Positions 29,185-42,932 of a stretch of DNA of 64,000 nucleotides are shown piece by piece; position 1 is the first letter of the stretch, and every line of letters begins with the position of its first letter. Below the pieces are notes generated by a model, which was not told the origin of the DNA, ran no database searches, and saw only the letters and a program-made list of their open reading frames with translations. Both the position numbers and the translations under genes were made by a program. This DNA comes from Methanotrichaceae archaeon (GTDB taxonomy: Archaea; Halobacteriota; Methanosarcinia; Methanotrichales; Methanotrichaceae): the NCBI GenBank assembly GCA_963803145.1, contig CAWDLW010000030.1, positions 1-64,000 of the forward strand, given 5' to 3'.

Positions 29185-29688
29185 ATGAATATTCTTTTAT
29201 CCTGCGTGCATATCGGAAGTAGCATGGCAGAGAGATATATTATAGACGTGCTAAATAGCATAGGGATCGAACTGGATGACATCGTATCCGCGGCACTGGA
29301 GCTTTACTTTCCCCATCCCGGGGTAGAGACTCGCGAGAAAGCAGAGGCCAAGTTTAGAGAAGAACTAAATATAGCGCTATCAGATCCTAATCTCGCTTTG
29401 CTGATATATGCTGGAGTTCTCCTTGAATCCGAAGGCATAAATCGGAATCTTCCGAACATCAAGCAGTCGGATTATGATAACGACCTGACGTGCCTGATTG
29501 CTGATGAGGTACTAGGCCTGAGCATTGCTAAGTACATCGGAGGCTACAAGGGATTGTTCGATTACGTCAGATATGATAAGGCAAAGCCCGGTATTCTCGG
29601 ACGCTTAGGTCCTTTCATGGATGATTGTATCGGCGGACTGATAGGCGGGGTGTCTGCTAACATGTATACAAGGGCGGTGTTTGACTGA
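29185..29688 (+). CDS. cobZ: alpha-ribazole phosphatase CobZ-like
   Basis: LIADEVLG..IAKYIGG.KG.F.Y.RYD..KPGIL..LGPFMDD; precedes cobS. The start may be ATG 29224. Confidence 0.8.
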   Translation: MNILLSCVHIGSSMAERYIIDVLNSIGIELDDIVSAALELYFPHPGVETREKAEAKFREELNIALSDPNLALLIYAGVLLESEGINRNLPNIKQSDYDNDLTCLIADEVLGLSIAKYIGGYKGLFDYVRYDKAKPGILGRLGPFMDDCIGGLIGGVSANMYTRAVFD

Positions 29689-29693
29689 AGGAT

Positions 29694-30449
29694 TTGATAT
29701 TTGCGCTCAAATCGGGATTCGGCTGGCTATCGACTATACCTGTTGGCATCTCAATGGAGGGCGTAGATGCCCTGATGGGACATGTCTATATCTTTCCCAT
29801 AATCGGACTTGTGCTTGGATCGATCTTTGGGGCGGTCGCATTCATTGTCGGCAAGGCATTGCCTTCAAGCCTGATCGCAATAATAGTAATAATAATCATC
29901 TATAAGCTCTGTGGAATCAATCATATTGATGGCCTCGCAGACTTCGGAGATGGTGTGATAGCTCACGGAACTATAGAGAAGAAGATTCAGGCAATGAAGG
30001 ATGTGAATATCGGCACAGGTGGCGTCGTCTTCATTTCCGTCATGCTTCTAACATTGTTTGCCATTATATCCAATATGCCCACGGGCCTGCTGCCGTTAGC
30101 CCTAATTGCATCCGAGATCTCGGCAAAACAATCGATGATCGCCTTTGCCGCGTTCTCCGAATCTTTGCAGAAAGGCTTCGGACAAATAATGATCGAAAAG
30201 ACCGGCAAACGCGAGTTTATTATTGGTCTCATAATAGCGGCTGCACTATGTGCATCAATACTGGGGCACTTAGGCATTATTATGCTCGCGGCTTCGCAAA
30301 TCGCTGCTTTATATATGACTCAAGTGGCTAAGAGAAACTTCGGCGGGGCAACTGGCGACGGCATAGGCGCGACAAACGAGATATGCAGAGCTATGGCTCT
30401 CGCTACTGCAATGATCTTTGGAGGAATAGTTCCATGGATGCTCTGGTGA
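29694..30449 (+). CDS. cobS: adenosylcobinamide-GDP ribazoletransferase
   Basis: HIDGLADFGDG, AMKD...GTGG, FGGATGD..GA..E; multi-pass membrane protein. Confidence 0.93.
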   Translation: MIFALKSGFGWLSTIPVGISMEGVDALMGHVYIFPIIGLVLGSIFGAVAFIVGKALPSSLIAIIVIIIIYKLCGINHIDGLADFGDGVIAHGTIEKKIQAMKDVNIGTGGVVFISVMLLTLFAIISNMPTGLLPLALIASEISAKQSMIAFAAFSESLQKGFGQIMIEKTGKREFIIGLIIAAALCASILGHLGIIMLAASQIAALYMTQVAKRNFGGATGDGIGATNEICRAMALATAMIFGGIVPWMLW

Positions 30450-31036
30450 TGGCAGGCGGGAAGGGCACACGACTCAAGATGGGCGAAAAGCCGTTGGTCA
30501 AACTTCTTGGAAGACATCTCATCGATTATGTGACCTCTGCACTTGAGGATAGCTCTGTAGAGAGGATATTCATCGCCACTACTGAGAACGTGCCTATGAC
30601 AAAAGATTGGGCAAATGATCGTGATCTCAATGCAGTAGACACACCCGGGACAGGCTTCGTAGCAGATATGATCTATGCAGTTGAGCGTATAGGCGTTGTA
30701 GATCCGGTGATGGTGATTATGGCAGATTTACCACTGATAACTCCCGATCTAATAGATAACATAATAGATATCTACGAAGAACGGCCTGAGCCCGCACTCT
30801 CTACACATACGCCGCTTCACCTACATAGCCGACTGAGCCGAAGGCCAGACTCATTATTCAATTATCGCGGTCAGTTGATAGTTCCTGCTGGGGTAAACAT
30901 TCTTGACGGTGCAGATATAATACATGAGCAAGAAGATTATCATCTGATACTTGAGAGGCTTGAGATGGCCATAAATGTAAACACAACAGACGATCTGAAG
31001 CTGTGCGAGAGGATACTCTTAGGTGATCTTAGTTGA
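30434..31036 (+). CDS. cobY: GTP:adenosylcobinamide-phosphate guanylyltransferase
   Basis: MDALVMAGGKGTRL..GEKP, ADLP, NVNT..DL, in the cob cluster. Confidence 0.88.
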   Translation: MDALVMAGGKGTRLKMGEKPLVKLLGRHLIDYVTSALEDSSVERIFIATTENVPMTKDWANDRDLNAVDTPGTGFVADMIYAVERIGVVDPVMVIMADLPLITPDLIDNIIDIYEERPEPALSTHTPLHLHSRLSRRPDSLFNYRGQLIVPAGVNILDGADIIHEQEDYHLILERLEMAINVNTTDDLKLCERILLGDLS

Positions 31037-31499: not shown

Positions 31500-31889
31500 T
31501 TATCCTCCGCATCCGCAGCTGCCCCCAGCTGTGCCCGCAGTTGTTCCTCTTGATTCTCCGAGCGGGTACATGATATTCGTATACCCAGTGAGATTTCCCT
31601 TGAGCCTGTCCTGAGCGTATCGGGTTAAATCGAGTACAGTAGGCTGTATATTAATCTTCTGTGTGTTGTTTATTGATGAGTTATTCATCGGCTGGTTATT
31701 CGTGGAGAGGCCGTTTATTGGTGCTCCGCCTATATGATATACTCCTGCACCTGGCTGTGACAATGTGCCAGTAAGCTTAAAATCTCCTAAGTTAATCTCA
31801 GTGCTTCCAGGCAGCCACTGGGCATATGCACCACAGACGAGAACGCCAGATAGAGCTGCTAATGCCATTATTATCTTTTTCGAAAACAT
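31500..31889 (-). CDS. putative secreted protein ending in GGSCGCGG
   Basis: Signal peptide MFSKKIIMALAALSGVLVCGAYA; a GGAGG RBS lies before ATG 31889. Confidence 0.7.
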   Translation of the reverse strand: MFSKKIIMALAALSGVLVCGAYAQWLPGSTEINLGDFKLTGTLSQPGAGVYHIGGAPINGLSTNNQPMNNSSINNTQKINIQPTVLDLTRYAQDRLKGNLTGYTNIMYPLGESRGTTAGTAGGSCGCGG

Positions 31890-31969
31890 AAATACACCCT
31901 CCTGTCGGAAACTATTTCTATAAAAATTGAAAGGGTTATGTGCCCCTGAGGGCACACTGCCATCTTAGT

Positions 31970-33397
31970 TTACTTCGGCTTCGGCGGCCAGAAGCTCTTC
32001 ATCCACTCAGAGATTCGTCCTGAGTCTTCAGGTCCAACCATTATCTTGGTCTTTCCTGCAAAGAGATCCTCGAGCTCGCCGCTGAACTTGGCAGCCATTC
32101 CTGGCAGCACCATGCCAGGAGTCTTCTGGCCTTCCCACTTGAAGTCGGACTCATCGAAGGAATCCTTTATCTTCGTGGGCGTGAGCTGACCGCCTGCGAC
32201 TGATGCCTGCACACCTATTCCATCTGTATTTATGGAAATTATGTAGGCATCGATGCCGTTAGAGGCGATATCGGACTCGACTGTGTAGTATGTCAGGGCG
32301 AAATTCGTCGTGACGAACACTGGTGACTCGGGTCCTGGGTTGCCGACCTTGTATATACCAGGCTTGACCTGCACGGGCTTTCTCGGATCGGTGTAGATGT
32401 TGAACCGGAGGTGCATATCAGGCATCATGCTGTGCGCCTCAGTCGAGTGCTTGATCATTATTGCGCCACCGCGGATGGTGAATGCCGCTGTGAGGACGGA
32501 CTCCCAGTAGGCAGCCCTGACTGGATCTTGTGTTGTTAGCCAGGCATTGATTGGCAGAGCCATTACTGGATAGGCAATATCCCTCTGGGCCTCCTCAACT
32601 GCAGCCCTTCGGAGGTTGATGAAGTTCTTGAGTGACTGCTGTAGCAGCTTGCCGTTGGGTGCCGTACCTGGATCAAGGACCAGATCGGTTAGGCCCATGC
32701 CGGCAAAGGTCGTTGCCATGGACTTCAGGCCATCCAGATCAAATGGCACACTCAGAGTTACTGGTACATTGTAATCGTGTGCAAGCTGGGCGACCTCCTT
32801 CCAGTTATCCTTATTAGCAGCGTAGATGAGCGGCCTATTCTTGGCAGCAACATCAAGTCCTGCCTTCAGAACCTTGGGGTTGAAGGAGCAAAGGATAAGC
32901 GGATAGTCTGTGGTCTCCATTACCTTCTTGACGCATGCCGCAAACTTTGCGGGATCATCGGTAACGGATCGGACCGCAATCATCTCCACTTGTTCCCACT
33001 TGCCGATGTAGAACTTCCTCCAGGTGGAGATCTTCTTCACACGCTCGACGAGCTTGGCCTCGTCCATGTTATCGGTTACATCATAGGCAAAGGGCGGCTT
33101 GTTGAAGAAGGTCATCTGGTGGCGGTACATGATGTCCTCTCCACCAACCTTGATCTGCTTCTCGCCTATGCCTACTAAGACCATCTTCAGCTCAGGGGAT
33201 ATGATCGATTTGAGTGCCTCGAGCTTCTTTGCATACTTCTTTTCCTTGACAAGCGGTGTGCAGTCCTCAACCTTCTTCTTCCGTTCGATGAGCCCTGCAG
33301 CAAAGGCCATGCAGGTCTGTTCGCCGCATTCCTTACAGTTGGTCTGGGGAAGCTGCTTGTAAAGGTTAAGTGGGCTAGTTTCCTTCATGGATCTCAA
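31970..33397 (-). CDS. cdhE: ACDS complex gamma subunit (CFeSP large subunit)
   Basis: [43 protein letters not shown]. Confidence 0.95.
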
Positions 33398-34758
33398 GCC
33401 TCCATCTTAAGCCAGCTGGCTGTATCAGGTGTCTTAGCATCTATAAGTCCCATCAGAGACTGGGTGATCTCATGCACATATGCAACAGCTAGCGGATGCA
33501 TCATCATGAATATGTCCACACCGGCCATTGCCAGAGTAAATCCAGTGAGAATCTCCCAGATTGGGCCACGAAGCATCCTGTCTCCCCAATCGGAATCCTG
33601 CTTGTTGGGGGATCTGACCATCCATGCCTCACGAACGCCCCATGCGTTGGTGGTTCCGGATGACATTGGGAATGTCAGCTCTTCGTCGCCCTTCAGGGCT
33701 CCGAGCCTGATTCTCTCCATATTAGTATATGCGAAATCGAGGCCGTATGCCAGAGCTGCTGTTGTCGGGTCCATTACTATGGATTCCCTTGGCATTCCGA
33801 CGACCTTCATGAGCTTCCTGTTCAGCTCCTTCTGGGAGTTGATCTCAAGCTGCGTCCAGGCGAGACATACGTGTCCATTATCCTTGCATGCCTTTCCTAT
33901 CTTCTCCCAATCCATGTTCAGGTTAGCCGAGGCTATTAGAACGCGCTCGCCCTGGGCCGCTTCAGCTGCCTTGGAGAGCACTATCGGATCCTTCTCAGGG
34001 TTGCCTGAGCCGCCGATGCATATTGGGACTTTAACAGCCTGCAGGACGTCCTCAACTGTCTTCACTGCATCCTGTGGCTTGGTATCCTTCAGCAGCGGGT
34101 CTGTGCTGATCAGGTGTACAGTCACCAGATCGGCGCCAAACTTATCTACAGCCTTCTTGGCCCACGCGGCTGGATCATTTATTACGTCCTCGTAGTGCAC
34201 CTTAACTGCCTTGGCCATGCCGATCGGCGTATCGAAGACATCCATTGTGATCTTGGGCGCATTGGGCATTAGTGCATCTGGGAAGAAAGGCATAGCCTTC
34301 TCGCCGCCGAGCTTCACAACATTGCCCCTGCTTCCGCCATCTGCCTTTGTGGCTCCGATGATGACCTCCTGAATTGGAGTCTTCCAGGTCTTGTCCGTTC
34401 CGACGGAAAATTTGGCTGCATTCAAGGAACCTGCTACCTTCCAGACGGGTACAGCTGCTGCTGCAGCGGCTGCTGCTGATGCAAGCTCTTTTGGTGCCGG
34501 GGATATAGCCTGAGCTACTGCAACCGGCTGAAGCAATGCATCAACTGGATAGCCTACAGCCTTTGCGAAGTTTATGAGCTGCATTGCAATCTTGGCTGCC
34601 TCTTGGCCAAAGTAGTAGGCGAAGAGCGGACCAAAGCCCGCAGCACCTGAGTCTATTTCTATCTCTATATCTCCCTCGATCTTCAAACCTTCAAGGGATT
34701 GTACATTCATTTCTGATAAGGTCTTGTTCAAATCAGATAAAGTGATCTTCTCTGCCAT
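33394..34758 (-). CDS. cdhD: ACDS complex delta subunit (CFeSP small subunit)
   Basis: [44 protein letters not shown]. Confidence 0.95.
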
Positions 34759-34768
34759 TATATCACCC

Positions 34769-35530
34769 TCATAGGCCTATCTCCTTGACGACCGCTCGCA
34801 TCTCAATCACAGCAGGCGAATCGTCAGGAAGGCCCATCAGTGGATCTCCCACTAAGTCAAACTTGGCTAGCAATTCATCGTAGGGAATAGTACCGATAAC
34901 ATTCAGGCCCAAGCTTTTTGCCGTCTCCAGAACCTTATTCTTCCTATCTGGAGTCACCTTGTTGACGATGACATAGAGCTCTTTATACTTGAGCTCGATC
35001 TCCTTCGCCAGATCCCGGATACGTTCAGCAGTCGTAAGGCCTCTCCGGGATTCATCAGTAACAGCAATAAGCACATCCAGGTCGGGTATAGTCTTTCTGC
35101 TGAAATGCTCAAGCCCCGCGGGAGTATCTATGATGGTCAAATCGTAATCATTTACGGTTTTGTCCATAACGCCACGCAGAAGGTTATTTACAAAACAGTA
35201 GCATCCTGAACCCTCTGGCTTTCCCATCACTAGAAGGTCGTATCCCTCCTCCTCCCGAAGGATCTCGAAGAGCTTTGATTCAAAAAGCCTTTGTTTATCG
35301 GTATCTGGAGGCGTAGTGTATCGAGCCTGCTGCATGAACTCCCTCATATCGCCAATGGTCTTTCCTACCTCTACACCCAAGGCGTCAGCGAGGTTGGCAT
35401 CAGGATCTGCATCGATAGCGAGTATTCTATATTTTTTGCTTGAACTTTTTACAAGATATCTAATAAGCATGGCAGTCACAGCAGTCTTGCCTGTGCCGCC
35501 TTTGCCTGTCACCGCAATTACTTTCCCCAC
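34769..35530 (-). CDS. cooC: CooC/AcsF nickel-insertion ATPase
   Basis: [22 protein letters not shown]. Confidence 0.9.
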
Positions 35531-35543
35531 GGTTCAGCCTTCC

Positions 35544-35729
35544 TTATTTCTTCTTGATAATTACCTCTGCCACGTGGACTGTCGCTCCCCGAAGCTCGAG
35601 CGTTATGCCTCCGGAAGCTGCAGGCATGGCAAAAGCTGGCGCGGCTCCTGCTGCTGGCGCTGCGGCTGCGGCGGGTGCTGCTGGAGCATCCTCCTTCTTC
35701 TTAAGCTTGAGCTGAATCTTTCCTGCCAT
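35544..35729 (-). CDS. ACDS-operon microprotein 2 (61 aa)
   Basis: GAGGAGG RBS; MAGKIQLKLK, an Ala/Pro linker, then GGITLELRGATVHVAEVIIKKK. Confidence 0.85.
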   Translation of the reverse strand: MAGKIQLKLKKKEDAPAAPAAAAAPAAGAAPAFAMPAASGGITLELRGATVHVAEVIIKKK

Positions 35730-35769
35730 AACATCCTCCTCACTTTAAATTATGATAGTAGTATTTCGC

Positions 35770-35813
35770 AATAATAAAAGGCCAGTCTCCTCAAAATAGA
35801 GGTAAGGCGGCCT
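35770..35813 (-). terminator. stem-loop plus U-rich tract inside the cdh operon
   Basis: Minus strand: AGGCC..CCTC-TATTTT-GAGG..GGCCT-TTTATTATT, directly after the microprotein 1 stop codon. Confidence 0.5.
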
Positions 35814-35996
35814 CTACTTAGCGAGTACCACCTTATCGATTGATATCTTTGCGTCTTTCAGTATCAGCTTTATGCCGCCAGCGCTGCCTGACATTGAGAA
35901 AGCTGGGGCTGCTGTGCCTGCTGCAGGGGCAGCTGCCGGAGCAGCTGCGGCCGCAGGTGTCTTGGGCTTAAGTTTAAGCTGTATCTTCCCTGCCAT
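35814..35996 (-). CDS. ACDS-operon microprotein 1 (60 aa)
   Basis: GGAGGT RBS; MAGKIQLKLK, an Ala/Pro linker, then GGIKLILKDAKISIDKVVLAK. Confidence 0.85.
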   Translation of the reverse strand: MAGKIQLKLKPKTPAAAAAPAAAPAAGTAAPAFSMSGSAGGIKLILKDAKISIDKVVLAK

Positions 35997-36010
35997 TTTT
36001 ATCTACCTCC

Positions 36011-37420
36011 TCACTCAAGGACGCCATCTGCCTGGAGAGCCTCTATGACCTGCATAAACTGGCCCTCAGACAAGCCGAGCTTATCCTTGACTGCCTGAAC
36101 ATCGATGTCTCCGCCGGTCTCCTGGATGAAGTTGATAACCTTCTCCTTGATCTCATCGGAGATATCCTCGAGCTTCCAGCCCTCGGTGATCTTCTTATTA
36201 TCAACGGGCCTTGTGACACCGCCGACAACTGGATGATCGACCTTCAGCAGGAACTTCTTTAGGGACTCGATGTCTTTAGCATCCTCTTCGGTGGCGATCT
36301 TCGGGTACATCTCCTCTGGAATGCCCGCCTTTACCCTCTCCTTGAGCTTCTTGGACATCCATACGATCCTTCTCCAGCCTCCATCTGCCTGAAGGAACTT
36401 AGAGGAGAAGTAGTACAGAATACCCATGCCCAGGAATCCTACGACCTGCTTGCCGCCGCCTGTCTGGCCTGCCATTGTGGAGAAGGGAAGCCCGTTTGGT
36501 GCAGCGCCCTTGTAATCACGGTCAGCTATGCCGATTCCATCGACCTCAGGCATGTAGAACCCAATGGTTTCGAAGCATCCACAGGATGTGTGGGGAGCAT
36601 CGAAGAAGGTGTACAGCTTCATGATTGAGTACTCGCCACCGGATCTCTTTGCTGCAACCTCGTTGATGGATGCATACTCGCCGGTGACTGCGTCAATTGG
36701 CTCGCCCTTCGGTACTGGGAACTGGGGGCCCTCTGGGTCTACCTTGGCTGCTGCACGGCCATCGAACCAGGTAATGGCTCCGCACAGGGATGGCCTATCT
36801 GGAGAGACTACGCATGCGCTTGTTGGGGCGAATGCCTGGCATAGGGTACATCCATAGAAGACATCGACATCTTCGTCATGAAGTCCCTTGGCCCTCTCAT
36901 CGCGTGCCTTGTAAATCTCCATTGCCTTGGCCAGCTCTTCCTTAACCCTGGCAGGATCTGTGACGATTGTGATCTCCATCTTCTCGATGAAGGGCATCTC
37001 TGCCTTGTAGAGATCGATGATGGGCTTGTAAATCTGCTCCCACTTGGTTACACCCTTCTTCTGCAGGCTCTTGCCCATTCTCATCCAGATGTCATACCTC
37101 TGGTTGAGGTGCATGAGACCTGAGACATAGGATAGCAGTGCGTGGTTTCTCCTCTCTATGATAGACTCCAGATCCTTCTCGATCTTCTCGCCGCCGACTT
37201 TGAAGATCATTCCGAAGGGTATTGTGGAGCCCTCTTTAATCTCTGAAGGCTCAGGGCCAATAACGGTTATCTTTCCATCCTGAATCTGATCCATTGGAGT
37301 TGCCAGGGATAGCTCGAAGCCGTATGCCTTGGGGCCAGCAAGCTCTATCCACAGGTCCTCTTTTCTGATACGCTCCCCTTCATACATTGGGGATATGTCC
37401 AACTTGACTTCATCTGCCAT
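36011..37420 (-). CDS. cdhC: ACDS complex beta subunit (acetyl-CoA synthase)
   Basis: YEGERIR, HLNQR, FYGCTLCQAFAP, LCGAI.W.D, PHTSCGCFE, GGKQV.GF.G. Confidence 0.96.
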   Translation of the reverse strand: MADEVKLDISPMYEGERIRKEDLWIELAGPKAYGFELSLATPMDQIQDGKITVIGPEPSEIKEGSTIPFGMIFKVGGEKIEKDLESIIERRNHALLSYVSGLMHLNQRYDIWMRMGKSLQKKGVTKWEQIYKPIIDLYKAEMPFIEKMEITIVTDPARVKEELAKAMEIYKARDERAKGLHDEDVDVFYGCTLCQAFAPTSACVVSPDRPSLCGAITWFDGRAAAKVDPEGPQFPVPKGEPIDAVTGEYASINEVAAKRSGGEYSIMKLYTFFDAPHTSCGCFETIGFYMPEVDGIGIADRDYKGAAPNGLPFSTMAGQTGGGKQVVGFLGMGILYYFSSKFLQADGGWRRIVWMSKKLKERVKAGIPEEMYPKIATEEDAKDIESLKKFLLKVDHPVVGGVTRPVDNKKITEGWKLEDISDEIKEKVINFIQETGGDIDVQAVKDKLGLSEGQFMQVIEALQADGVLE

Positions 37421-37448: not shown

Positions 37449-38015
37449 TTATTTCTTCAGTGCTTCGATTATTTCGTCGACTGCTGCGTGATAGTCGTCC
37501 GGATTAAATGCCATGTTGCCAAAGGTCATGTTCGCGTTGACGTGATAATACCTGTCTATCGAGACGCGCTTTATGTTCCTGTTGAAGTGCTTTAACGTAG
37601 AGAACATGGCATTGGCGAATTTGTAGAAGATGCCCATGAATATAACGGTATCATACTGGCCTTTGCCATCCAGACCCATCCAGTCCTCGAACCTGAGGTA
37701 GCTGGTGAGCGGATGTAGACCAATCTGATAGACATTAGTCATGTAGCCTCTGTCTACAAAGCCCTTCACGCTGTGTGCTGTAGCTGCGATCGGTATACCT
37801 GTTTTGCCGATCTCAATCATCTTGTCGAACATCACCGGGTCATCAAAGAGCTCTGCTCCCACAACGAGCAGAGGTCTCTGCGACTTCTTGATTATAGCTG
37901 CGATGACCTTCGGCATATAAGTCTTGGCCATCTCGGGCCCAGGGATCTGGGCCATCTCAAAGGGAACTGGATTTTTGGTTGTATCAATACCCTTGGGTTT
38001 TGCTTCAGCTGCCAT
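37449..38015 (-). CDS. cdhB: ACDS complex epsilon subunit
   Basis: IKKSQRPLLVVG, W.GLDGKGQYD, RYYHVNA; lies between cdhA and cdhC. The start was taken at MAAEAK. Confidence 0.92.
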   Translation of the reverse strand: MAAEAKPKGIDTTKNPVPFEMAQIPGPEMAKTYMPKVIAAIIKKSQRPLLVVGAELFDDPVMFDKMIEIGKTGIPIAATAHSVKGFVDRGYMTNVYQIGLHPLTSYLRFEDWMGLDGKGQYDTVIFMGIFYKFANAMFSTLKHFNRNIKRVSIDRYYHVNANMTFGNMAFNPDDYHAAVDEIIEALKK

Positions 38016-38032
38016 TTTGATCACTTCCTGCC

Positions 38033-40450
38033 TCACTTCTTAGCCCTTATCTTCCTCGGGAGGTTCGTCGGATCAAAGCTCACATCTGCGGGCCGCAAGG
38101 GGCCTGACAGGAACTTCTTGTTCTTCCAATCGACCTTCCAGCCGTGCTTCGACTCAAGCTCCTTCATCATGCTGTCCTTATAGGTGATGGGCAGGTCCTT
38201 TGCATCCCTTACATAGATGTACCAGTCATCAGGCAGCTTGCCGAAGTACTTCATGGAGATGTCGCACCAATGGTTCAGCTTGATCGATCTGCCCATGCTG
38301 TTATCTGAGGGCCTGAAGCAGAGCTTTGCCATCTCCAGCATTGCCTCCTCCTTGGTCTCAGCTATGTAGAGCATCGCCTCAGGAGCGGGCTCAATCTGCT
38401 GCATCTTGCCGTCGCGGGCATCTATGACCATCCAGTCCTCGGGCTTGTCCGCCCTTCCCATGAAGGATCTCCTGTACATGACGGAGTGGGGCTGGACGAC
38501 TACTGGAATACCCAGCCGGTTGCAGCCTGTCGCGATTGATGCTGCCTTCTGAGAGTATGCGCCCCAGGCAATGCCGCAGGCTCCGACCTTGGAGAGGATG
38601 TAGTCTGCAATATCATCGAAGTTTGCCCTGTGGTTCCTGTGAGCGAAGATTGTTGCTACCTTGATCGCAGCATCAGCAATGTTTGCGTTGGCAACGCATG
38701 AGCCGGTGTTGCAGATGTTCCTGCCGTCAAAGCCTCCAGGATACTGCTCCCAGATGCTCTTGCCCTCCTCGTTCTTGTAAAGGGACATATCCATTGCCAT
38801 GCAGCCGGAAGTGACGACGATATAGCCCCGATCCACGAACTCCTTGGCAATATCGTAGCATTCCTTTGTGCCTCTCGGATAGTTACTGCATCCGACCAGA
38901 GCGATGACTCCCGGGATTGTTCCAAGCACGATTGGAGCCCCAACAGCCCTGATCTCTGTATCCCTGGCGGGTCCGCGCCCGGCTCTCATCAGGAATTTCT
39001 GATTCTTAACATACTCACGATTGGCATACTCGTAGAGGTCCATGATGGGTATACCTTGCGGGCATACCGTCTCACACCTGGCACAGCCAACGCATATCTC
39101 ATACATCGATGAGAATGCCTCAAGATTGCCCTTCTTGGCCTCATCGATGAGATCGCTGATTCTGGTGTGGGGCGGGCATACGAATGCGCACTGGTTGCAT
39201 CCCGTGCACTTATCCAGGGCCTCCTTGAACTGCGCTTCAGTCAACTTGGAGGCTATCTTGGTCTCGGCACGCTTAGGCTTGACTGCAATGGCAGTCCTAA
39301 TACCAACTGCTCCAGCCTTCTCAGGATCAAGGATGGCAACGCCAGGAACTTTGAAGTTCACAAGGTCATCCACAATCTGGTCTATAGGATCATTAGTCCT
39401 GTCCTGCAGGCCGAGCATAATCTTATCAGTGGTGGCAATGAGAGGGATCTTGCGTTTCTGACAATCCTCAAGAACATCGCAGTAGACGCACTGCTCATCA
39501 ACCATTACAGTATCCATGACTCCGGAGCGGACCATCTTCCTCCACCAGCCCATAGCTCCTGCGATCTTGGCTTTTGTTCCAAGGTTTTTCGCCAGGCTCG
39601 GGTGTCCAATACCCTCCGCAATCCTCGTCAGATCGAAAGCAGTACAACAGACGCCTCCGATGTCCACCTTATCCCAGAGCTTGTTTGCCTCTGCGTAAAT
39701 CATGGCCTCGGCGCCTGCTGCCAGGTTATGGCCGTAGGCGATGAGAACGCCCTTATTCTGATCCAGTGTGCCCATGCCGACCTCGATTAGAGGGGCATCT
39801 GCAGCACCACGCGGCATATCGTATGCCACGATCTGAAGCATATCGCATATCTCCATGCCCAGAAGATCCAGCATTCCAGCATGCAGCGCCTTGGATTCGA
39901 AGTCTTTGTAATAGCCCTCTTGGCCGGTATGAGTCGCGGCAACGAGCTGAACAACTTCTTCCTCCAAGTAGCTCAAGCCCTCTCCAAAGTCCTTGAGTGT
40001 CCTGGGCTTGCTGCCAACGATTGTCTGGTAAATAGGTGAATCTACAAGAATCTCATCGCCCATATCGAACTTCATATCTCCGAATCTGTCCAGGCACCAG
40101 TGGTACAGATGTCTTCCGTGGGCGGCATGAGCGCAACATCCCATCAGGCAAGCGATGAGGACGATCCTACCGGAGTAGGCTGCCATATCCATACCGCAGG
40201 CACCACGCTTATCACCAGTCAGGTCACAAGGTCCATAAGTACAGAGCGTGCAGGTATCATCTGCTGGGGCATACATGATTCTATATCTATTCGCTATCTT
40301 GAAGTCCCAATCACGGAGCGTTGCTACGCCGGGCTTGGGGAAAGGACCCATAGGTTGGTCCCACTCTTCCTCTTCCTTAACGACAGCTCCGATGTTGATC
40401 TGGACGTTCTTCATGTCCTCAACAGCAAAACTGCCCTCGGTTTTTACCAT
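38033..40450 (-). CDS. cdhA: ACDS complex alpha subunit (CO dehydrogenase)
   Basis: GPFPKP...LRDWD, CTLCTYGPCDL, HAAHGRH, GVCCT, DEQC, two ferredoxin motifs, GCSNY, GSCV, WGAYSQK. The start was taken at MVKTEG. Confidence 0.97.
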   Translation of the reverse strand: MVKTEGSFAVEDMKNVQINIGAVVKEEEEWDQPMGPFPKPGVATLRDWDFKIANRYRIMYAPADDTCTLCTYGPCDLTGDKRGACGMDMAAYSGRIVLIACLMGCCAHAAHGRHLYHWCLDRFGDMKFDMGDEILVDSPIYQTIVGSKPRTLKDFGEGLSYLEEEVVQLVAATHTGQEGYYKDFESKALHAGMLDLLGMEICDMLQIVAYDMPRGAADAPLIEVGMGTLDQNKGVLIAYGHNLAAGAEAMIYAEANKLWDKVDIGGVCCTAFDLTRIAEGIGHPSLAKNLGTKAKIAGAMGWWRKMVRSGVMDTVMVDEQCVYCDVLEDCQKRKIPLIATTDKIMLGLQDRTNDPIDQIVDDLVNFKVPGVAILDPEKAGAVGIRTAIAVKPKRAETKIASKLTEAQFKEALDKCTGCNQCAFVCPPHTRISDLIDEAKKGNLEAFSSMYEICVGCARCETVCPQGIPIMDLYEYANREYVKNQKFLMRAGRGPARDTEIRAVGAPIVLGTIPGVIALVGCSNYPRGTKECYDIAKEFVDRGYIVVTSGCMAMDMSLYKNEEGKSIWEQYPGGFDGRNICNTGSCVANANIADAAIKVATIFAHRNHRANFDDIADYILSKVGACGIAWGAYSQKAASIATGCNRLGIPVVVQPHSVMYRRSFMGRADKPEDWMVIDARDGKMQQIEPAPEAMLYIAETKEEAMLEMAKLCFRPSDNSMGRSIKLNHWCDISMKYFGKLPDDWYIYVRDAKDLPITYKDSMMKELESKHGWKVDWKNKKFLSGPLRPADVSFDPTNLPRKIRAKK

Positions 40451-40681
40451 TGGGTTCTTGGCCTCCTCTTTCCTTTGATATACGCCGCTCCCGTTGGCTG
40501 AAATTACATAAAACACTTTCGGATACCAATTAATATAAAATAACCCTGATCACCAGTATTTTCATCGAATTATTACTATATTGGTCATATATGCTGCGAT
40601 GCGCGAACGCGATCACGATTGTTAATGTATAATATCTATCCGTCAACTTGAAATGCGGACACGAAAGTATGCCTCTGGCTC

Positions 40682-41785
40682 ATGCTAGACAGAATCAGAA
40701 AGAGCTTTGCGGCAAGCAGAGAATGCTACCATGGAGGCAAATTCAGGGAAGCAGCCTTGCAAGGGACCACGCAAGCTCCTCCCCCAATGGATTTCAGCGC
40801 CAATATAAATCCTCTAGGTGCTCCCCCACTGGAATCCGTCGTTTTAAAAGAGCTGGAATCTATAGGCTATTATCCGGATAACAAATACACCGAGTTCAGG
40901 AGTGCCATCGCTCGCTTTGTGGATGTGGAGCCTGAGAACGTAGTTCCGGGAAACGGTTCATCGGAGATCATCAGGCTCTTCGCGGAGATGGTCCTGGAGG
41001 AAGGAGATCTGGCACTGATACCTTTTCCAACCTTCGGGGAGTATGAGAATCAATCCCTCTTATCAGGTGCCAGAGTCAAGCGAATAGAAACGGATTCGAA
41101 AGGCATGCCCATAATAAGTGATCCTGACCTTAGTGATGCCAAAGCACTCTTTGTATGCAACCCAAATAACCCCACTGGGGCATTGATACCAAGAGAAGAT
41201 ATTGCAGCTCTTGCGAAAAGATGCGAGCGAAATGAAGTATTCCTCCTGGTTGACGAAGCTTTCATAGAACTATCCGACCCTGATCAGAGCATAGCATACC
41301 TCGCGCCTGATATGGAGTACTTGCTTGTCATGAGATCTCTGACAAAATCATTCGGCGTTCCGGGGCTAAGGCTGGGCTTTGGTGTCGCAAACCCCCTATT
41401 TATAGAGATAATGGATAGATCCAGGATACCCTGGTCAATAAGCTCCATAGCGGCTGCCGCAGGAGCATATCTCCTCGGTAATGCTGATTACCTTGAGGAT
41501 TCAAGGAATCTTATCAAGAGAGAACGGGAATGGCTTACTTCTGCACTATCGAATTTAGGGCTCAAACCTCTTACTAGCAGTGTTAACTTTATTTTAGTAA
41601 ACATTCAGCCAGCAGGCATTGGCTCGGATGAGCTTACAAAATATATGATTGCACAGGGAGTGCTTGTCAGAGATTGCCAATCCTTCGGCCTTGGAAAGGG
41701 CTACATAAGAGTGGCAGTTAGAAATAGAGAGGAGAATGAGCAGCTAATAGAAGCCCTGGAGCGTGTCATCAAATGCACCGATTGA
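40682..41785 (+). CDS. cobD: threonine-phosphate decarboxylase (class I/II aminotransferase)
   Basis: HGG, DFSANINPLG, CNPNNPTG, DEAF, SLTKSFGVPGLRLG; precedes cbiB. Confidence 0.88.
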   Translation: MLDRIRKSFAASRECYHGGKFREAALQGTTQAPPPMDFSANINPLGAPPLESVVLKELESIGYYPDNKYTEFRSAIARFVDVEPENVVPGNGSSEIIRLFAEMVLEEGDLALIPFPTFGEYENQSLLSGARVKRIETDSKGMPIISDPDLSDAKALFVCNPNNPTGALIPREDIAALAKRCERNEVFLLVDEAFIELSDPDQSIAYLAPDMEYLLVMRSLTKSFGVPGLRLGFGVANPLFIEIMDRSRIPWSISSIAAAAGAYLLGNADYLEDSRNLIKREREWLTSALSNLGLKPLTSSVNFILVNIQPAGIGSDELTKYMIAQGVLVRDCQSFGLGKGYIRVAVRNREENEQLIEALERVIKCTD

Positions 41786-42015
41786 ACTGCGAGCGATATC
41801 CCTGTCATTTCCCCAAGCAGGATTGTGCCTTCTGCTTTTGTCCTTTTTATCCATGTATGGATGAGAGGACTAAAGGTCATATGAAGGGAGATACCTGGGC
41901 TTGCGAGGACTGTGTTGTTATCCATTCTCCAGAAATATCCTATATAATCATGGATGCACTTATGGGAGGCAAGGCCATAACGGAAGCCTGGAATATTCTC
42001 ACGGAGCTATTATGA
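41773..42015 (+). CDS. cysteine-rich small-domain protein
   Basis: CERYPCHF..QDCAFCFCPFYPC...WACEDC..IH. Confidence 0.85.
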   Translation: MHRLNCERYPCHFPKQDCAFCFCPFYPCMDERTKGHMKGDTWACEDCVVIHSPEISYIIMDALMGGKAITEAWNILTELL

Positions 42016-42932
42016 GCTCAGATGCATTTCTGGTATTCCTATTAGCCGTTGCCTTTGATCTGATAATAGGGGAGCCTACCGCGAAAATACACCCTGTTGT
42101 TTGGATAGGCAAGCTTATTTCCTTCCTGAAAAGCCGCGCTAGGCCAACAAAGGCTGATGGCCTAATGGTTGCAATGGCAGTGATAATAACAACGGTTTTC
42201 ATAGGCCATGCAATTGTCATTGCCGCAGGACAGATCCCTATTTTCGGCGGGCTGTTTAGTACTGTAGCCGCTGCATATTTGCTAAAATCGACATTCGCTA
42301 TAAGGTGTCTTCTCCAGACATCAAATGATATAGGAAAAATGATCGATAGCAATATCGATGAGGCCAAAAGGATGCTTCCGGCTCTTGTAGGTAGAGCGAC
42401 AAAGGATCTTACATCTGCGCAGGCGGCATCTGCGGTGATCGAATCTGTCTCAGAGAACTATGTGGACACTATAATATCTCCGATATTTTATTTCCTTCTC
42501 TTCTCGCCCTTCGGCCTTGGGCTCGAGGCGGCCCTCGCATTCAAGGCGATGAGCACAATGGACAGCATGTTGGGCTACAAAACAAAGGGCCTCAAGGAGA
42601 TAGGCTACGTGCCTGCGAAGCTGGATGACATTGCCAATTATATCCCGGCAAGGCTCAGCATACTCCTTATAGCCCTTGCGAGACCATCAAGAGCTGCTGC
42701 GGCAATAGCATCTGCCCTGAGGTACCACTCTAAAACGCCCAGCCCCAATTCCGGCTGGCCTATGTCGGCATCGGCGGGCAGCTTGGGCGTTAAGCTGGAA
42801 AAGCCGGGCTTCTACGTGCTGCTTGAAAAGGGAAAAGAGGCAGCTACATCAGATATACCGGATGCCGTCAGGCTCATAGGTCGGGCATCGATCTTTGTGT
42901 TGGCAATATCTTCGCTCATACTGCTGTTGTAA
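42012..42932 (+). CDS. cbiB: adenosylcobinamide-phosphate synthase
   Basis: GEP...HPVVWIG, LVGR, ESVSEN..D, DSMLGY, AKLDD.ANY.PAR, SPNSGWP. Confidence 0.93.
   Translation: MSSDAFLVFLLAVAFDLIIGEPTAKIHPVVWIGKLISFLKSRARPTKADGLMVAMAVIITTVFIGHAIVIAAGQIPIFGGLFSTVAAAYLLKSTFAIRCLLQTSNDIGKMIDSNIDEAKRMLPALVGRATKDLTSAQAASAVIESVSENYVDTIISPIFYFLLFSPFGLGLEAALAFKAMSTMDSMLGYKTKGLKEIGYVPAKLDDIANYIPARLSILLIALARPSRAAAAIASALRYHSKTPSPNSGWPMSASAGSLGVKLEKPGFYVLLEKGKEAATSDIPDAVRLIGRASIFVLAISSLILLL

Follow-up and report, generated by a model that had tools for sequence, protein, structure and literature searches.

Acetyl-CoA decarbonylase/synthase (ACDS) is a supercomplex of ~2 MDa that cleaves acetyl-CoA in acetoclastic methanogenesis, the source of most biogenic methane. 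To our knowledge Methanothrix is one of only two genera of acetoclastic methanogens, and all that we know to have been purified from it is a two-subunit carbon monoxide dehydrogenase (CODH). The subject here is the complete ACDS operon that is found, from the list of open reading frames (ORFs) and Pfam, on the minus strand of 64,000 nt of DNA from a Methanotrichaceae archaeon (assembly GCA_963803145.1, contig CAWDLW010000030.1, positions 1 to 64,000; this whole stretch is referred to as the window). Between cdhC, which encodes the beta subunit or acetyl-CoA synthase (ACS), and cooC lie two small ORFs, microproteins A and B, which are genuine genes, are conserved and co-occur with a distinct C-terminal domain (CTD) of CdhC, and profile comparison indicates homology between their C-terminal motif and the extension at the C-terminus of canonical CdhC. 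The reading favoured here, with moderate confidence, is that A and B serve as free subunits of ACDS and provide the tether tail in trans.

The closest described system is the fused tail of Methanosarcina CdhC, a disordered extension of ~70-75 aa. The available text of Biester et al. 2024 (PMC11474084) describes the ~75-aa extension of CdhC in M. thermophila as of unknown function and unresolved by cryo-EM, thought to matter while ACS swings between CODH and the corrinoid iron-sulphur protein, with limited proteolysis that truncates the beta subunit helping to resolve the complex. For M. acetivorans the available text of the preprint of Zimmer et al. 2026 (PMC13370988) presents the N-terminal region of CdhD as an oligomeric hub, to which the disordered residues 1-43 of CdhA and 401-470 of CdhC are proposed to bind, and reports one confident crosslink, from CdhA E15 to CdhC K452. 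As far as the text of these two recent structural studies goes, the question of how the supercomplex is held together is left open by both. With this fused tail, as it is presented there, microproteins A and B share the same Ala/Pro-rich linker, a homologous motif and the operon position right after the CdhC core, but they are separate polypeptides with their own Shine-Dalgarno (SD) site and start, exist as two paralogs and have a basic N-terminal strand in place of the acidic run of the fused form, whilst CdhC itself ends in an extra acidic three-helix domain instead.

Two further systems invite comparison. MtrI and MtrR of the Mtr complex of Methanosarcina mazei are also proteins of <100 aa associated with a large methanogenesis complex, but in the available text of PMC12774963 and PMC13370731 they are condition-responsive modulators, and their sequence is unrelated, whereas A and B are homologs of part of a core subunit and are encoded within its operon. 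The swinging-arm linkers of 2-oxoacid dehydrogenase E2 chains have a similar Ala/Pro-rich composition and form a flexible arm in a megadalton complex, but A and B have neither a lipoyl nor a binding domain, and the similarity is compositional only and does not amount to membership. What is already known is the CdhC tail. No printed description was found of a tail that stands free, of the CTD or of the way in which these two are paired, nor of the A/B duplication or of the occurrence in several archaeal orders. Neither Methanothrix nor Methanosaeta is mentioned in the available text of PMC11474084 and PMC13370988, although the extended-data figures or supplements of the preprint may show a clade of these CdhCs.

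Two small genes between cdhC and cooC

The features of this region, in the order of transcription, are:

36011-37420, minus strand: cdhC (ACS beta subunit, 469 aa), with Pfam families CdhC and ACS_CODH_B_C; an A2/A3 core without a fused tail
36014-36226, minus strand: CTD of CdhC, residues 399-469, in the place of the fused tail
36005-36012, minus strand: SD site of microprotein A, GAGGAGGT, overlapping the TGA stop of cdhC
35814-35996, minus strand: microprotein A (60 aa), an ORF between cdhC and cooC
35777-35815, minus strand: stem-loop between A and B, beginning at the stop codon of A
35735-35741, minus strand: SD site of microprotein B, GAGGAGG
35544-35729, minus strand: microprotein B (61 aa), an ORF and paralog of A
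34769-35530, minus strand: cooC-type accessory ATPase, with Pfam families CbiA, AAA_31 and ParA

The coordinates and strand of both ORFs were verified, and each has its own ribosome site and the shared layout that the first-pass annotation of this DNA had described, in which the start MAGKIQLKLK is followed by an Ala/Pro linker and a strand-like C-terminal motif. In A the basic N-terminal strand is MAGKIQLKLKPK and the C-terminal motif, GGIKLILKDAKISIDKVVLAK, is that of the canonical type of CdhC tail; B has the N-terminal strand and linker of A and a diverged C-terminal motif, GGITLELRGATVHVAEVIIKKK, the two proteins being identical at 32 of 60 positions (53%; BLASTP E 5e-11). The SD site GAGGAGGT ends 8 nt upstream of the ATG of A, and GAGGAGG ends 5 nt upstream of that of B. 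As the TGA stop of cdhC is followed by a 14-nt gap and A lies in another frame with a separate SD site, A is a polypeptide separate from CdhC. Pfam gives no match to A or B at E <= 1, and the NCBIfam profile SucB_Actino shows a weak match to the linker region of B (E 0.081).

It is apparent that these ORFs are maintained throughout the family. A profile (A1) built from 23 such microprotein ORFs finds matches in 66 of 74 other genomes of Methanotrichaceae, with E 1e-19 to 1e-29, in small frames of 56-129 aa that are present as two tandem copies in nearly all of the 66. At 42 of 45 family loci the distance from A to a downstream B is 64-117 nt, the exceptions being one N gap and two contig ends, and both genes are present at 55 of 63 Methanotrichaceae loci. 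The other eight comprise five contigs that end <=620 nt from cdhC, one frameshift-ridden assembly in which both copies are broken, one locus with a single copy and one with none, the last being a second cdhABC cluster in another context.

The first-pass annotation had argued for selection on the protein from the first 10 codons of A and B, which differ at four positions (GGG/GGA, ATA/ATT, CTT/CTC, AAA/AAG), each time synonymously, and this is borne out at the other end of the proteins. For the C-terminal motif the ratio of nonsynonymous to synonymous differences (pN/pS, from Nei-Gojobori sums over all pairs of distinct sequences) is 0.13 for A (44 sequences, chosen by the protein motif, which is present at 44 of 45 loci) and 0.22 for B (42 sequences, chosen by position), which is purifying selection; third codon positions of the motif are variable in 19/19 codons, second positions in 2/19 (A) and 7/19 (B). 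Across 53 distinct junctions the gap between cdhC and the microprotein ranges from 1 to 52 nt, the three frame classes are occupied by 24, 19 and 10 junctions, three different stop codons are used and an SD-like site lies <=16 nt upstream of the microprotein in 52. As the gaps fall in all three frame classes and the SD-like sites are conserved, the ORFs are initiated independently and not read through. Fusion of A to cdhC by readthrough or frameshifting was considered and is excluded, since spacing, frame and stop codon are all variable.

The suggestion that annotation usually misses these peptides did not hold, as 254 predicted proteins of 33-105 aa that match the microproteins at E <= 0.001 have already been called in public collections, under names such as 'hypothetical protein [Methanothrix sp.]' (NCBI) and 'CO dehydrogenase/acetyl-CoA synthase beta subunit' (JGI). 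The family is a small one, with 38 proteins at E <= 0.001, mostly of 39-110 aa, among 1.84 billion cluster representatives. One representative, P0160 (3288 aa), matches profile positions 47-60 in 16 separate stretches and is probably an unrelated repeat protein. Contigs from three peat metatranscriptome libraries, from near relatives, span both ORFs, which is weak support for expression: the contigs carry no level, ends or strand, the libraries may contain DNA and a depth step-down after A is not usable. Nine metatranscriptome runs contain 5-19% of sampled words.

Between the two genes lies a predicted hairpin with a T-rich loop, followed by a T run and an AT-rich stretch ahead of the SD site of B (region 35730-35815). 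The 55 nt from the stop codon of A fold at -16.2 kcal/mol (z -3.05), and a 96-nt stretch gives the same hairpin at -21.7 kcal/mol with z only -1.18. When 39 distinct family sequences were folded singly (55 nt) the median was -20.7 kcal/mol, and z was < -2 for 30 of the 39. Stems vary in sequence from genus to genus, and RNAalifold on the alignment of the A-B intergenic region found only 3 consensus pairs, the stems being out of register in the alignment. The predicted hairpin may serve as terminator, attenuator or mRNA-stability element, splitting the operon between the paralogs.

Free and fused forms of the CdhC tail

That the peptides carry the motif of the CdhC tail, as the first-pass annotation had proposed, is upheld by the profiles of CdhC itself. 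The C-terminal end of the NCBIfam profile NF003379 matches A (positions 418-458 of 464, E 8.6e-5) and B (positions 413-460, E 0.015), and TIGR00316 matches A at positions 426-460 (E 0.0043). When a profile of 21 microproteins from six families was aligned by hhalign to one of 19 fused tails, the two matched over 31 columns of the C-terminal motif with probability 98.5% and E 2.9e-15. CdhC of the window matches NF003379 only at 1-413 of 464, and TIGR00316 at positions 2-421 of 460 with 639 bits against a cut-off of 356, so that its core is a member of the family and the tail is absent. The genome has this single CdhC and the motif occurs in it only twice, on A and on B; the microproteins resemble the CdhC C-terminal extension in sequence, but are not part of the CdhC polypeptide and lack the acidic run that precedes the linker there.

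The fused arrangement is seen in the sister family, where 63 of 67 genomes have one A1-profile match per operon, at profile positions 12/13-61 and inside CdhC frames of 467-483 aa. At the end of these CdhCs an acidic run leads into an Ala/Pro/Met linker and then GGIKLTFKNAKISIDKMII or GGVKIILKNAKVSIDKVII or close variants, with cooC directly next, so that the linker and motif given in the first-pass annotation for the Methanosarcina-type tail are indeed seen there. The N-terminus of CdhD in this family is near-identical to the M. acetivorans sequence printed in the available text of PMC13370988. The fused module, covalently on CdhC in most ACDS systems, is an acidic run, an Ala/Pro-rich linker and a basic motif, GG(I/V)K(L/I)xLKNAKIxIDKxII, which is beta-hairpin-like.

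CdhC of the window ends differently, as had been noted, in ...KLGLSEGQFMQVIEALQADGVLE. Its CTD is a conserved acidic domain with three predicted helices and a net charge of -8 and is probably winged-helix-like. Its Pfam matches are sub-threshold, to DUF7343 (E 0.0024, 18.1 bits against a gathering threshold of 27.6) and HTH_24 (E 0.014, 15.4 bits against 21.9), as is that to the C-terminus of CdvB (NCBIfam profile positions 212-256, E 0.0043); SelB is also among the sub-threshold matches. The AlphaFold2 model of the CTD (predicted local distance difference test, pLDDT, 66; predicted template modelling score, pTM, 0.43) has helices at 40-53, 59-65 and 70-83, and no wing after helix 3. A Foldseek search of the PDB with this model gave no match at E <= 0.001; the top matches are all winged-helix or helix-turn-helix domains, the best, non-significant, being the CdvB domain 2xvc (E 0.54, probability 0.93). 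In 2xvc the CdvB winged-helix domain holds, as we take it, the short C-terminal peptide of CdvA, and the likeness would be that of a small helical domain that holds a peptide, as proposed for the CTD and the microprotein N-terminus; the pair differs in that there is no significant sequence or structural similarity, the model of the CTD lacks the wing after helix 3 and binding by the CTD is only proposed.

The CTD is present in 64 of 74 Methanotrichaceae genomes, always at the end of a CdhC-sized frame, in 0/67 sister-family genomes and in 0/3 and 0/4 genomes of two further families; the single outside match (E 0.0086) is in a 167-aa frame that is not CdhC. In a phylum-level profile search 104 of 301 genomes had a match to the microproteins, and free small frames were found outside Methanotrichaceae as well. 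At all 12 of 12 loci around such free frames, in five other families, a CdhC with a clearly homologous CTD is followed immediately by one microprotein ORF of 52-92 aa, with a basic N-terminal strand (KKLQLKIKKK, KPLKLKIKKK, KIKLKKK or similar), an Ala/Pro/Thr linker and the motif. Similarly, 8 of 8 CTD-type loci in metagenome-assembled genomes (MAGs) of Methanocellales and in Candidatus (Ca.) Methanoliparum, Ca. Methanolliviera and Ca. Syntrophoarchaeum have exactly one microprotein right after cdhC, the 12 and the 8 overlapping in part, as some contigs are the same. The CTD is absent from 25 of 25 fused-tail CdhCs examined. The presence of the peptides therefore tracks the absence of the fused tail, both between Methanotrichaceae and the sister family and at the outside CTD-type loci, as had been expected. 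The idea that this lineage moved the motif onto two peptides stands in part: the two-paralog duplication is specific to Methanotrichaceae, and only this duplication is, but no fewer than five other families have examples of a CTD-type CdhC with a free microprotein.

Both forms can also occur together, since the Ca. Syntrophoarchaeum and f32 genomes have a CTD-type operon with a free microprotein plus a second, fused-tail CdhC. In a quick maximum-likelihood tree of 50 CdhC cores (25 CTD, 25 fused; IQ-TREE, with support from the Shimodaira-Hasegawa-like approximate likelihood ratio test only, four duplicate or truncated rows omitted) the CTD type is not one clade; 5 changes are needed, at least 4 of which are forced by well-supported branches, and the pairing of CTD and microprotein occurs at no fewer than four separate places. 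Because the CTD type is scattered over the tree, the two forms appear to have been interconverted or exchanged repeatedly.

The genes that follow the microprotein vary. It lies directly upstream of cooC in Methanotrichaceae, Methanocellales MAGs and Methanoliparia; at L062, L063 and L064, the CTD-type operons of Ca. Syntrophoarchaeum and f32, cdhD comes directly after it with no cooC between, and CdhD of these loci is ~500 aa long, its Cys-rich C-terminal extension being similar to the cluster-binding part at the N-terminus of CdhE. A further ORF, of 75-82 aa, lies between cooC and cdhD at a Ca. Methanolliviera locus, a second locus of its family and two Methanocellales MAG loci (L055:2885-3109(-), L057:4943-5170(+), L060:4932-5156(+) and L066:5180-5425(+)). 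This ORF is similar to the hub region at the N-terminus of CdhD (BLASTP E 9e-11 to 4e-6), has no Pfam family and is followed by a full-length CdhD with its own N-terminus; its sequence suggests a second kind of ACDS docking module that stands free.

A proposed tether in two parts and its alternatives

If A and B do supply the tail in trans, their C-terminal motif would dock at the site of the fused tail, near the N-terminal segment of CdhA and the N-terminal hub of CdhD, whilst the basic N-terminal strand (K-L-x-L-K-L-K-K/P-K), found only in free forms, would bind the acidic CTD of CdhC, so that the tether is restored non-covalently. A gene duplication in Methanotrichaceae would then have left A with the canonical motif and B with a diverged one. 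Since the motif of A is homologous to the fused tail, A, and perhaps B, should dock where the fused tail docks; as the motif of B has diverged, B may address a second docking site. We infer from the sequences that A and B are incorporated into ACDS and that both binding steps take place.

Binding of the strand to the CTD is proposed because the two co-occur and carry opposite charge, and the proposal draws on these points only. The first 16 residues of the microproteins have a net charge of +2 to +6 in 21 of 21 sequences, and the CTD one of -5 to -19 in 17 of 17. The CTD stands where fused tails have their acidic run, and the first ~22 residues examined of fused tails, counted after the conserved W if present, carry 0 to -13, with 14 of 19 at <= -3. 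Complex prediction for the CTD (87 aa) with microprotein A scored 0.02 against a mark of 0.32, was run without controls and is no evidence either way.

The proposed docking site appears to be preserved in the window. Counted back from the C-terminus of 470 residues, residue 452 is the 19th, and locus L052, which has a Methanosarcina-type tail, has the K of TFKNAK at this position, so the crosslinked K452 would lie inside the tail motif. The stretch of CdhA that surrounds E15, GSFSIEDLESVQITI, has its conserved counterpart in the window in GSFAVEDMKNVQINI, the CdhA motif GSF(S/A)(I/V)ED..VQI.I is kept, and the N-terminal segment MVKTEGSFAVEDMKNVQINIGAVVKEEEEW is conserved with Methanosarcina-type CdhA. 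The N-terminus of CdhD is also conserved and corresponds to the region of the Methanosarcina complex to which the available text of PMC13370988 gives the hub role. The CdhA of L160, a split-type operon of Ca. Syntrophoarchaeum type, has the N-terminus ...KVLNLKLKKFRTGSF..., a microprotein-like basic strand right before the conserved GSF motif.

Several points weigh against A and B as a tether supplied in trans. The two are known here from sequence alone, not at the protein level or from purified Methanothrix ACDS, and the contigs from RNA libraries prove neither transcription nor translation. That the fused tail acts as a tether has itself only been proposed, and the available text of PMC13370988 states that biochemical data are lacking for the disordered parts of CdhA and CdhC. 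Cross-linking of ACDS subunits by the microproteins, which had been suggested for this locus, would rest by analogy on what that preprint proposes for the fused tail. How the CTD folds is uncertain, given the scores of its model, family matches below curated cut-offs and non-significant Foldseek results. Some Methanotrichaceae have a second CTD-type cdhC without adjacent microproteins (L137; G048:C1:1657344-1657556; G015:C58:2079-2285), L137 being a cluster of cdhABC alone, with neither a microprotein nor cooC or cdhDE downstream of it. Lastly, MAGKIQLKLK resembles the CdhD N-terminus MA(E/G)KITLSDL, and the partner of the strand could be whatever binds that CdhD strand and not the CTD.

This likeness is the starting point of another explanation, thought unlikely, in which A and B are ACDS subunits that do not bind CdhC but act as two-ended cross-linkers within the disordered hub, with ACS held by the CTD directly or untethered; the N-terminal strand might, for instance, occupy the position of a CdhD-like strand whilst the C-terminal motif sits on the CdhA N-terminus. 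The earlier description of a two-ended peptide does apply, both ends being conserved on a linker that varies from ~20 to 60 aa, the N-terminal motifs of CdhA and CdhD are conserved in the window, and the free CdhD-N-terminus-like microproteins at related loci argue that hub modules can stand alone. However, the apparent likeness to CdhD covers ~7 residues, and cross-linking within the hub leaves unexplained why the microproteins constantly occur with the CTD and never with a CdhC that has a fused tail. It is more improbable that A and B are not stable subunits at all but transient assembly or maturation factors that work with CooC, for example by delivering ACS for nickel insertion. Such a role would suit their place next to cooC in Methanotrichaceae, Methanocellales MAGs and Methanoliparia, but not L062-L064, where cooC does not stand between microprotein and cdhD, nor the fact that in Methanosarcina the mature beta subunit carries the homologous fused tail permanently.

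Less probable again is that the free tails are decoys or regulators, which compete for docking sites and thereby adjust the amount of ACS or CODH bound in the supercomplex. A free microprotein and a fused-tail CdhC for it to compete with do occur together in the Ca. Syntrophoarchaeum and f32 genomes, and the conserved hairpin between A and B could permit separate dosing, but in Methanotrichaceae, with one CdhC and no fused tail, there is no competitor and yet the genes are under strong purifying selection. The idea that A and B are what is left of a split cdhC and are not translated, or that they are ORFs arisen by chance in GC-rich, Ala-coding DNA, could appeal to the Ala/Pro linker DNA of both, which is open in several frames; it is close to refuted, and very improbable indeed, in the face of conservation over six families, purifying selection at the codon level and the conserved SD sites, start and both terminal motifs.

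The reading in which A and B restore the tether of ACS may be part of a wider picture, put forward here only as a doubtful extension. ACDS would have two interchangeable tether architectures, a covalent tail and a split tether made of an ACS receptor domain and two-ended microproteins, which were interconverted or exchanged several times among archaea; in Methanothrix A would go to the canonical site near CdhA and B to a different one, and the hub would be modular. If so, the Methanothrix supercomplex would have another stoichiometry and the attachment of ACS would be reversible and tunable, which would account for only a two-subunit CODH having been purified. Taken with the free CdhD-N-terminus-like microproteins of Methanoliparia and Methanocellales MAGs, the ACDS hub would then be a set of modular, detachable docking peptides. 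A natural split version, with a separate 6-kDa tail and a candidate receptor domain on ACS, renders the tether question directly testable, and it gives the correct annotation for a recurrent 'hypothetical protein' or 'beta subunit' fragment of Methanothrix, Methanoliparia, Syntrophoarchaeum and some Methanocellales.

The rest of the operon and its surroundings

The other subunit genes of the operon are:

38033-40450, minus strand: cdhA, with its likely ATG start at 40450 behind a GGAGG site; the ORF is listed to 40516
37449-38036, minus strand: cdhB (epsilon subunit), an ORF, used as BLAST reference for labelling CdhB at related loci
33394-34758, minus strand: cdhD, with Pfam family CdhD
31970-33397, minus strand: cdhE (gamma subunit), an ORF, used as BLAST reference for labelling CdhE at related loci

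The listed ORF of cdhA begins at the GTG at 40516, and it is the conserved N-terminal motif (MVKTEGSF...) and the GGAGG site that favour the ATG. An ORF of 151 aa at 31500-31955 (minus strand), which has no Pfam family, has a signal-peptide-like start, an Asn-rich middle and GGSCGCGG at its C-terminus. Genes for the cobamide nucleotide loop lie on both sides of the cdh operon (29185-31036; 40682-42932):

29185-29688: PgpA-like protein
29694-30449: CobS
30383-31036: MobA-like nucleoside triphosphate transferase
40682-41785: class I/II aminotransferase
41901-42932: CobD/CbiB

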